A stretch of 1,744 nt of DNA from Escherichia coli. GTDB taxonomy: Bacteria > Pseudomonadota > Gammaproteobacteria > Enterobacterales > Enterobacteriaceae. Position 1 is the first letter of the stretch. Each line of letters begins with the position of its first letter. Positions 450 through 569 of the stretch are shown here, piece by piece. Both the position numbers and the translations under genes were made by a program. A model generated the notes under the pieces. That model was not told the origin of the DNA, did not search any database, and saw only the letters and a list, made by a program, of their open reading frames with translations. The DNA is taken from NCBI RefSeq assembly GCF_003334255.1, contig NZ_QOWU01000151.1. The stretch is one strand, 5' to 3'.

Positions 450-472
450 ACAAAAAAACCGCTGGCGCGGTT
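450..472 (-). terminator. candidate Rho-independent terminator on the minus strand
   Basis: Minus-strand RNA reads AACCGC-GCCA-GCGGUU (6-bp stem with 4 GC pairs, 4-nt loop) followed by UUUUUGUG; the plus strand has a run of seven A at 452..458. The stem is short, so this is tentative. It is not a plus-strand terminator, since the plus-strand 3' flank is GTGCGC. Confidence 0.35.
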
Positions 473-493
473 GTGCGCTACGTTTGTCAGCAG

Positions 494-508
494 GCTGCGA
501 AACCCGGC
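494..508. repeat. direct repeat GCTGCGAAAC copy 2 (494..503), fused to AACCCGGC (501..508), which also occurs at 373..380
   Basis: 494..503 is identical to 318..327. 497..508 (GCGAAACCCGGC) matches 369..380 (GCAGAACCCGGC) at 10 of 12 positions. Confidence 0.3.
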
Positions 509-569
509 ACCCGTTTTATGAGGTGCAGCGGAAATGTAACCCGACACGACGAGCGCTGGCAAGCGGTTT

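Follow-up and report, generated by a model that had tools for sequence, protein, structure and literature searches.

The locus examined here raises a simple question: does an intergenic region of an Escherichia coli prophage specify a small RNA on its minus strand and, if so, to what kind of system does that RNA belong? We analyzed a stretch of 1,744 nucleotides (hereafter, the window; contig NZ_QOWU01000151.1 of assembly GCF_003334255.1), for which a preliminary, sequence-only reading had proposed a candidate minus-strand RNA of about 75 nt, preceded by a promoter and closed by an intrinsic terminator. The window is 100% identical to a segment of E. coli DETEC-S792 (NZ_CP116067) belonging to a P88-like prophage of the P2 family. 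There, the prophage adjoins dmsABC, and the counterpart of the window lies between early genes (for a DNA adenine methylase and a DUF4406 protein) and a hypothetical gene followed by a replication endonuclease gene. Positions ~58-592 of the window show 87-89% identity to other Xuanwuvirus phages and to phage P88 itself, which was recovered following mitomycin C induction (PMC5285337).

The signals on which the proposal had been built could be located without difficulty. On the minus strand there are a -35 hexamer TTGCCA (557..562), an 18-nt spacer and a -10 hexamer TACATT (533..538), exactly as described. A terminator (452..472) is present as well, consisting of the stem-loop AACCGC-GCCA-GCGGTT (472..457) running into seven U residues (458..452), but the RNA would end at 452 rather than at 450. 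The reading had also cautioned that these were weak matches, possibly due to chance, and the promoter and terminator motifs taken alone did not stand above chance in the comparison with shuffled sequences. In particular, a scan of the window returned two promoter-like sites, compared with 0.8 ± 0.8 in shuffles, and nine terminator-like sites, compared with 2.3 ± 1.5, just one of the latter being on the minus strand. Structure prediction, which the reading had suggested as a check, did reveal the hairpins, but the stability of the RNA folded alone was no better than that of shuffled sequences (z = -0.84).

A search against all Rfam families was far more informative. Segment 526..452 of the minus strand matched the isrK family (RF01394) over model positions 1-77, with a score of 67.2 bits (cut-off, 50) and an E-value of 9e-14. 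This 75-nt segment (452..526) shows the isrK architecture, with two hairpins at the 5' end, then an unpaired linker and finally a Rho-independent terminator that has a U tail. Hairpin 1 (507..526), of 6 bp, is supported by the Rfam match, by folding and by compensatory changes, and hairpin 2 (491..506) by the Rfam match and by the pairing-site analysis presented below. Because the match begins 6 nt past the -10 hexamer and ends within the U-run, the coordinates and length originally proposed for the RNA were essentially exact. The RNA is predicted to have a σ70 promoter of its own and to start at G526, the first base of hairpin 1, located 6 nt downstream of the -10 hexamer. As far as sequence comparisons can tell, the support for an IsrK RNA comes from the full-length Rfam match and from conservation, not from the raw motifs.

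Conservation was assessed on relatives retrieved by searching viral contigs with the 73-residue protein encoded downstream (see below). This search yielded 80 loci, corresponding to 56 distinct cassettes of 82-100% identity. No variation was seen in either promoter hexamer across the 56 cassettes, while the intervening spacer did vary; in 28 distinct relatives, the entropy was 0 for the hexamers and 0.52 bits for the spacer. The conserved block starts about 10 nt upstream of the -35 hexamer, and the sequence upstream of the cassette showed an entropy of 1.21 bits in the 28 distinct relatives. The terminator stem and U-run were almost invariant in the P88-like set. Conservation of the hexamers and of the hairpin was another test named in the sequence-only reading, and its outcome agreed with the existence of the RNA.

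We extended the comparison to a diverse set of eleven elements, comprising the window, a Klebsiella phage, phiV10, TL-2011b, D6, P1, three lambdoid or Stx phages, PhiR47_1 and Gifsy-1. Throughout these eleven, a promoter-like pair lies equally far from the position where the RNA begins, and all six base pairs of hairpin 1 show compensatory changes. The terminators of the distant phages were not alignable by MAFFT and had to be folded one at a time; a hairpin followed by five to seven U residues was found at the terminator position in 11/11 cases, with differing stem sequences.

The small RNA had been recognized correctly, but the reading had missed that it does not stand by itself; IsrK is the 5' module of a longer cassette. 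Thirty-five nucleotides downstream of IsrK, a C4-type antisense RNA (Rfam RF01695) was matched over its full length at 416..329 of the minus strand, with 80.4 bits (cut-off, 45) and E = 1e-15. Its stems are 100% paired among the relatives, some of the pairs being compensatory, and its 3' end is formed by a conserved stem and then GCCACC. In P1-type immunity, RNase P frees C4 from its precursor and C4 blocks translation, with Rho-dependent polarity on what follows; the 3' end just described is the one feature of the window that points to such a process. No promoter-like site for C4 was detected by the motif scan in the 35-nt spacer (417..451), which is conserved in the alignment. As a separate observation, this spacer is almost invariant in the 28 cassettes, and pairing around the IsrK terminator is possible between its segment GUGCGU (451..446) and GCGCAC (477..472).

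The order isrK match, C4 match, antirepressor-type gene was always found in nine diverse phages, in Gifsy-1 and in P4, and we encountered the module in P1, P4 and Gifsy-1 as well as in lambdoid, phiV10-type and Klebsiella phages.

The three elements of the cassette are connected by six short pairing sites, all on the minus strand. Within C4 these are b' (CUGCGUUUG; 372..364), in a hairpin loop, and a' (CUGCGAA; 357..351), in the junction. IsrK contains a1 (UUCGCAG; 501..495), which occupies the hairpin 2 loop, and b1 (CAAACGUAG; 478..486), which is part of the single-stranded linker; these are complementary to a' and b', respectively, and are putative decoys. Past C4 there are two presumptive targets. 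The first, a2 (UUCGCAG; 319..325), is identical to a1 and lies 4 nt past the C4 match. The second is b2 (CACACGUAGAG, 291..281; feature 280..291), which overlaps the Shine-Dalgarno sequence GAGG (283..280) of the gene for the 73-residue protein and thus sits on the ribosome-binding site of an AUG at 272.

The six sites hold most of the variation of the transcribed noncoding region (0.91 versus 0.19 bits per column, p = 6e-12), and yet the pairing is preserved. For the decoys, a1:a' was 99% paired and b1:b' 98.8% paired in 28 variants, with changes on both sides in 4/7 and 7/9 pairs, respectively; taken together, these helices of 7 and 9 bp have 11 of 16 pairs compensatory. For the targets, a2:a' was 100% paired (4/7 pairs compensatory) and b2:b' 95.5% paired (6/11). 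As a control, sliding one partner by 1-3 columns caused pairing to fall to about 40%.

A total of 28 distinct combinations of sites could be recognized. The core of a1 and a2 is identical within each combination; that of b1 and b2 occasionally differs by a single base and is otherwise the same. In 26 of these 28, a1 and b1 matched their cognate a' and b' at all 16 pairs, whereas noncognate IsrK-C4 combinations reached 10.9/16 on average and 16/16 in only 2% of cases. One viral contig (L003; IMGVR_UViG_3300029738_000139, 150-495) combines an IsrK whose a1/b1 are of one specificity type with a C4 and a2/b2 of another, while its 73-residue ORF is identical to that of the window; it looks like a natural recombinant. 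Because only 11/16 pairs form in this case, either the match between decoy and C4 is not strictly required or the contig represents a recent recombinant.

Two further cassettes deserve mention. In one (L082:52-414), the b' hairpin of C4 has been duplicated through an insertion of 17 nt, which creates two b' loops in tandem that differ in specificity (CUUUGCUCU and CUUGUGUAG); in the other (L019), 2 nt are deleted within the a1 loop.

The predicted energies of the short duplexes are similar for decoys (a1, -13.2 kcal/mol; b1, -12.4 kcal/mol) and targets (a2, -10.7 kcal/mol; b2, -15.4 kcal/mol). Calculations on whole molecules, as duplexes and co-folds of C4 with either IsrK or the leader, gave energies that did not improve on those of shuffles or of the separate monomers; since calculations of this type cannot model loop-loop contacts, we relied solely on the short-site energies. 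In the minimum-energy fold of the read-through RNA (526..255), a1 and b1 pair with a' and b' in cis (z = -3.1).

Rfam also includes a c4-a1b1 motif (RF03163), which requires a1/b1 to be complementary to a'/b' of the adjoining C4. This complementarity is found in the window; however, the match to the motif itself (539..487) scored 20.5 bits, below the gathering cut-off of 46.7, and for this reason we did not file IsrK under that family.

The gene whose ribosome-binding site is occupied by b2 (51..272, minus strand) encodes a 73-residue homologue of the P4 epsilon derepression protein. Residues 10-65 matched Pfam PF25738 (Derepression protein family; E = 3.7e-7), a BLASTP comparison with P4 epsilon gave 32% identity over 50 residues (E = 8e-9), and the protein also matches phrog_3688. 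Records of P88 and other Xuanwuvirus phages annotate the ORF at 272..51 as 'derepression protein'. Substitutions are distributed as expected for a coding frame, with 15, 18 and 42 variable sites at codon positions 1, 2 and 3, respectively, and 51 synonymous versus 44 nonsynonymous changes. By homology, the product is a putative antirepressor, presumably directed against a P2-type C repressor. Searches with PADLOC and NCBIfam returned no match for this protein, for the plus-strand ORF discussed below or for the DUF4406 protein.

The founding member of the family, IsrK of Gifsy-1, has been shown by experiment to possess its own promoter and its own terminator, and it acts in a pro-induction sense (Hershko-Shalev et al. 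2016, PMC4825925). An RNA of this family is expected to accumulate as a short transcript, to bind Hfq and to activate translation of the antirepressor in trans. The same study proved a 'helix b-I' through compensatory mutants at G28/G31 and C162/C159 (PMC4825925). Using Rfam, we located the Gifsy-1 isrK at 34316..34240 and its C4 match at 34214..34131. When residues are numbered from the Rfam start, G28 and G31 fall in the a1 loop and C162 and C159 in a' of C4, so that helix b-I corresponds to the a1:a' contact.

The window resembles Gifsy-1 in having a three-hairpin RNA of like length, a promoter of its own placed 6 nt before the first base of the RNA, a leaky intrinsic terminator (as predicted here), a C4-type RNA immediately downstream (STnc1160, in Gifsy-1, is a C4) and then an antirepressor-type gene, and in the pairing of the a1 loop with a'. 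On the other hand, sequence identity is only moderate, the gap between IsrK and C4 is 25 nt in Gifsy-1 and 35 nt in the window, and the downstream gene is AnrP in a lambdoid phage in one case and that of a P4-epsilon-like protein of 73 residues in a P2-type phage in the other.

Satellite P4 is organized along the same lines, with an isrK match at 8692..8615 (60.8 bits; seqA of the PLE leader) and a C4 match at 8507..8420 (74.9 bits; the CI RNA), both upstream of epsilon. The equivalence of IsrK with seqA and of C4 with CI has already been published (PMC3632133; PMC10111431), and seqA has been reported as necessary for immunity in work summarized in PMC3632133. P4 and the window share an epsilon homologue and have replication genes further downstream on the same strand. 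They differ in that the two RNAs of P4 are separated by a gap of 107 nt, and in that a kil/eta frame lies between CI and epsilon, whereas in the window the epsilon-like gene directly follows C4. Furthermore, control in P4 is described as a premature, translation-coupled termination of transcription, while in the window b2 is placed on the Shine-Dalgarno sequence; and P4 is a satellite, as opposed to a complete P2-like phage.

For P1 we used the curated record NC_005856 (Citron and Schuster 1990), which specifies the P1c4 (P51b) promoter, a1, b1, c4, a2, b2, icd and ant. The order of elements in immI is that of the window, to which it is colinear, as are P4 and Gifsy-1. Spacing is also shared: 32 nt separate the -10 hexamer from a1 in both, 4 nt separate the end of C4 from a2 in both, and the distance of 6 nt between -10 and RNA recurs at the annotated P1c4 promoter, as it does in Gifsy-1. 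Further likenesses are the structure of C4, the coincidence of b2 with the ribosome-binding site of the gene that comes first downstream, and a specificity that depends on few bases of the a and b sites. The heteroimmunity of P1 and P7 is the classical case of specificity residing in such sites. In other respects P1 departs from the window: upstream it has a C1 operator along with a second promoter, and downstream icd-ant takes the place of an epsilon-like gene; neither icd nor ant was present in the window, as judged from its annotation and from protein-family searches. The Rfam scores are reversed, too, with c4-a1b1 above its cut-off (51 bits) and isrK below (35 bits) in P1, against 20.5 and 67.2 bits in the window. 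A competition between a1/b1 and a2/b2 had been proposed in the P1 work, as summarized in the supplement of PMC2864571.

In our opinion, IsrK is likely the first module of an RNA immunity/antirepressor switch composed of IsrK, C4 and the epsilon-like gene, within which it would function as a decoy that frees the antirepressor. According to this scheme, IsrK (526..452) would be transcribed from the TTGCCA/TACATT promoter and most transcripts would end at its own terminator. Some read-through must nevertheless take place for the remainder of the cassette to be made, and the resulting precursor would both be cut to release C4 (416..329) and serve as the mRNA of the epsilon-like protein (272..51). 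C4 would silence this gene when its b' loop and a' junction pair with b2 and a2 at the ribosome-binding site. With a1 and b1, IsrK would offer C4 decoy copies of its target sites; these could pair with C4 in cis on the read-through transcript, and the free short RNA could act as a competitor in trans, binding either C4 itself or the C4 portion of the long transcript. Titration of C4 would then permit translation of the antirepressor and favor derepression of the prophage, in the manner of Gifsy-1 IsrK. Judging from these comparisons, IsrK most likely acts here as it does in Gifsy-1, namely as a short RNA relieving a C4-type repression of an antirepressor, although its effect in this phage may instead favor immunity, as reported for P4 seqA, rather than induction. 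A search for LexA boxes in the window, including the isrK promoter, was empty, so that no SOS input was identified; nor was any other known input recognized at this promoter.

A different view, which we consider possible but clearly the less likely, is that the element operates in cis only, as a leader or attenuator similar to P4 seqA, the 75-nt RNA being a by-product of premature termination with no function in trans. C4 would bind a1/b1 on the nascent transcript, enforcing termination or keeping the long RNA inactive, and would thereby maintain lysogeny, with both the epsilon-like gene and the replication gene beyond it kept silent. The precedent of P4 lends some weight to this view, since isrK-type and C4-type elements precede epsilon there and seqA is described as a target of CI RNA for transcription termination, essential for establishing lysogeny (PMC3632133; PMC10111431). 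The cis pairing of a1/b1 with C4 in the read-through fold is also compatible with it, and the option is discussed by Hershko-Shalev et al. themselves (PMC4825925). However, the short RNA of Gifsy-1 activates the antirepressor more than 100-fold in trans, an effect abolished by mutations in a1 (PMC4825925, Table 1), and an antiterminator alternative to the IsrK terminator is not evident in the sequence of the window. Action in cis and action as a decoy in trans are not mutually exclusive.

We find it very improbable that the interval is protein-coding. The sequence-only reading had stated that no ORF occupies it; strictly speaking, several mechanical ORFs and a RefSeq CDS do cross it, but none has a coding-like character there. 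The CDS in question (473-1120, plus strand; WP_032326233.1) runs antisense across isrK from its annotated start at 473. Since phrog_6315 aligns from residue 6 of the version that begins with the ATG at 656, the annotated start is probably about 61 codons too far upstream; moreover, IsrK is conserved in relatives that lack the plus-strand gene. The ATG-656 version of the protein has 154 residues and contains hydrophobic segments.

Two further facts could be taken as signs of coding, namely the annotation of an 'ash family protein' pseudogene at this region in other genomes and the presence of one minus-strand frame open across the whole region. Yet the relatives carry indels of 1, 2 and 17 nt in the region, and the variation is compensatory for RNA pairing instead of codon-like. 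The open frame starts from an AUG at 412, inside C4, and extends to ~30 nt beyond the left end of the window (L001, 11969-12412), overlapping the 73-residue gene out of frame. In most of the 80 related loci it spans 142-150 codons without interruption, and in seven of them it is shortened by indels to 16-65 codons. We considered this frame as a conserved overlapping gene and discarded it, as it lacks a Pfam match, it accumulates 14 synonymous versus 79 nonsynonymous changes where it overlaps the 73-residue gene, and it is truncated in the seven loci just mentioned; its PHROG matches cover only the translated C4 segment. It is thus probably not a conserved protein, but it might serve as a short leader ORF, like orf45 of Gifsy-1 or kil/eta of P4. 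The AUG at 412 corresponds in position to the first AUG of orf45, which is A107 of Gifsy-1 and lies inside C4; orf45 comprises 45 codons, whereas the frame in the window has ~147 and bears no coding signature.

Some of the annotations at this site touch on a wider matter. PGAP renders the IsrK-C4 region of many E. coli prophages as an incomplete 'ash family protein' pseudogene (for example, L094:1160-1432), and three PHROG families labeled 'transcriptional repressor' (phrog_6928, phrog_821 and phrog_995) match the translated C4 segment. Because of the latter matches, some protein families seem to have been built in part on translations of RNA.

The weakest explanation, a chance occurrence of promoter and terminator motifs in an intergenic spacer with no functional RNA, would suit the raw motif counts, which are within shuffled expectation, and the nonsignificant fold z-score, but it is even more improbable than coding and is effectively refuted by the full-length Rfam match (E = 9e-14), by the covariation of a1/b1 with C4 and by the compensatory changes of hairpin 1 across phage families, in addition to the invariance of the hexamers beside a variable spacer and the recurrence of the module in P1, P4, Gifsy-1 and the other phages listed above.

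The element itself is already known: it is of a textbook type, recognized by a standard Rfam scan, and widespread, this IsrK type being found in 1225 of 5426 complete E. coli genomes. Biologically, it represents one more instance of a known RNA switch gating an antirepressor. Its main relevance regards annotation. In the window, the annotated start of the plus-strand gene runs antisense over IsrK. In the RefSeq records that we sampled, the site is either devoid of features or annotated as a hypothetical CDS or as an 'ash family protein' pseudogene, and none of them has an RNA gene at the IsrK position.

What the present analysis adds is modest, namely 28 natural specificity combinations with a three-way covariation of decoy, antisense and target, and a cassette that ties a P2-type helper phage to a P4-epsilon-like protein. 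The occurrence of the switch directly before a P4-epsilon-like gene in a P2-type phage, and the clean reassortment of a and b sites (at least six a-types and about 14 b-types in the 28 combinations), may be unpublished. These features invite a tentative and rather speculative suggestion, which we would not presently bet on: that P88-like phages share with satellite P4 an immunity/derepression module within their early operon, arranged as IsrK/seqA, C4/CI, epsilon-like antirepressor and replication gene, with the a and b sites forming a two-part address code that reassorts freely and IsrK being a type-specific anti-immunity decoy. Were this the case, silencing and unlocking among co-resident prophages and satellites would be governed by the code, and the IsrK decoy would link the induction of helper and satellite.

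The region upstream of the isrK promoter (from ~575-600 of the window and beyond) contains sequences that are unrelated among the cassette relatives, and because of this it behaves like a slot for variable cargo. P88 has a minus-strand 'lipoprotein' gene in this slot; in the window, it is filled by the plus-strand ORF of 154 residues, which converges on the DUF4406 gene with an overlap of 27 nt (1094-1120). Finally, phage D6 contains a second C4-like match (L086, 1064-1143), with a subthreshold score of 40.2 bits, about 470 nt upstream of its main IsrK-C4 pair.
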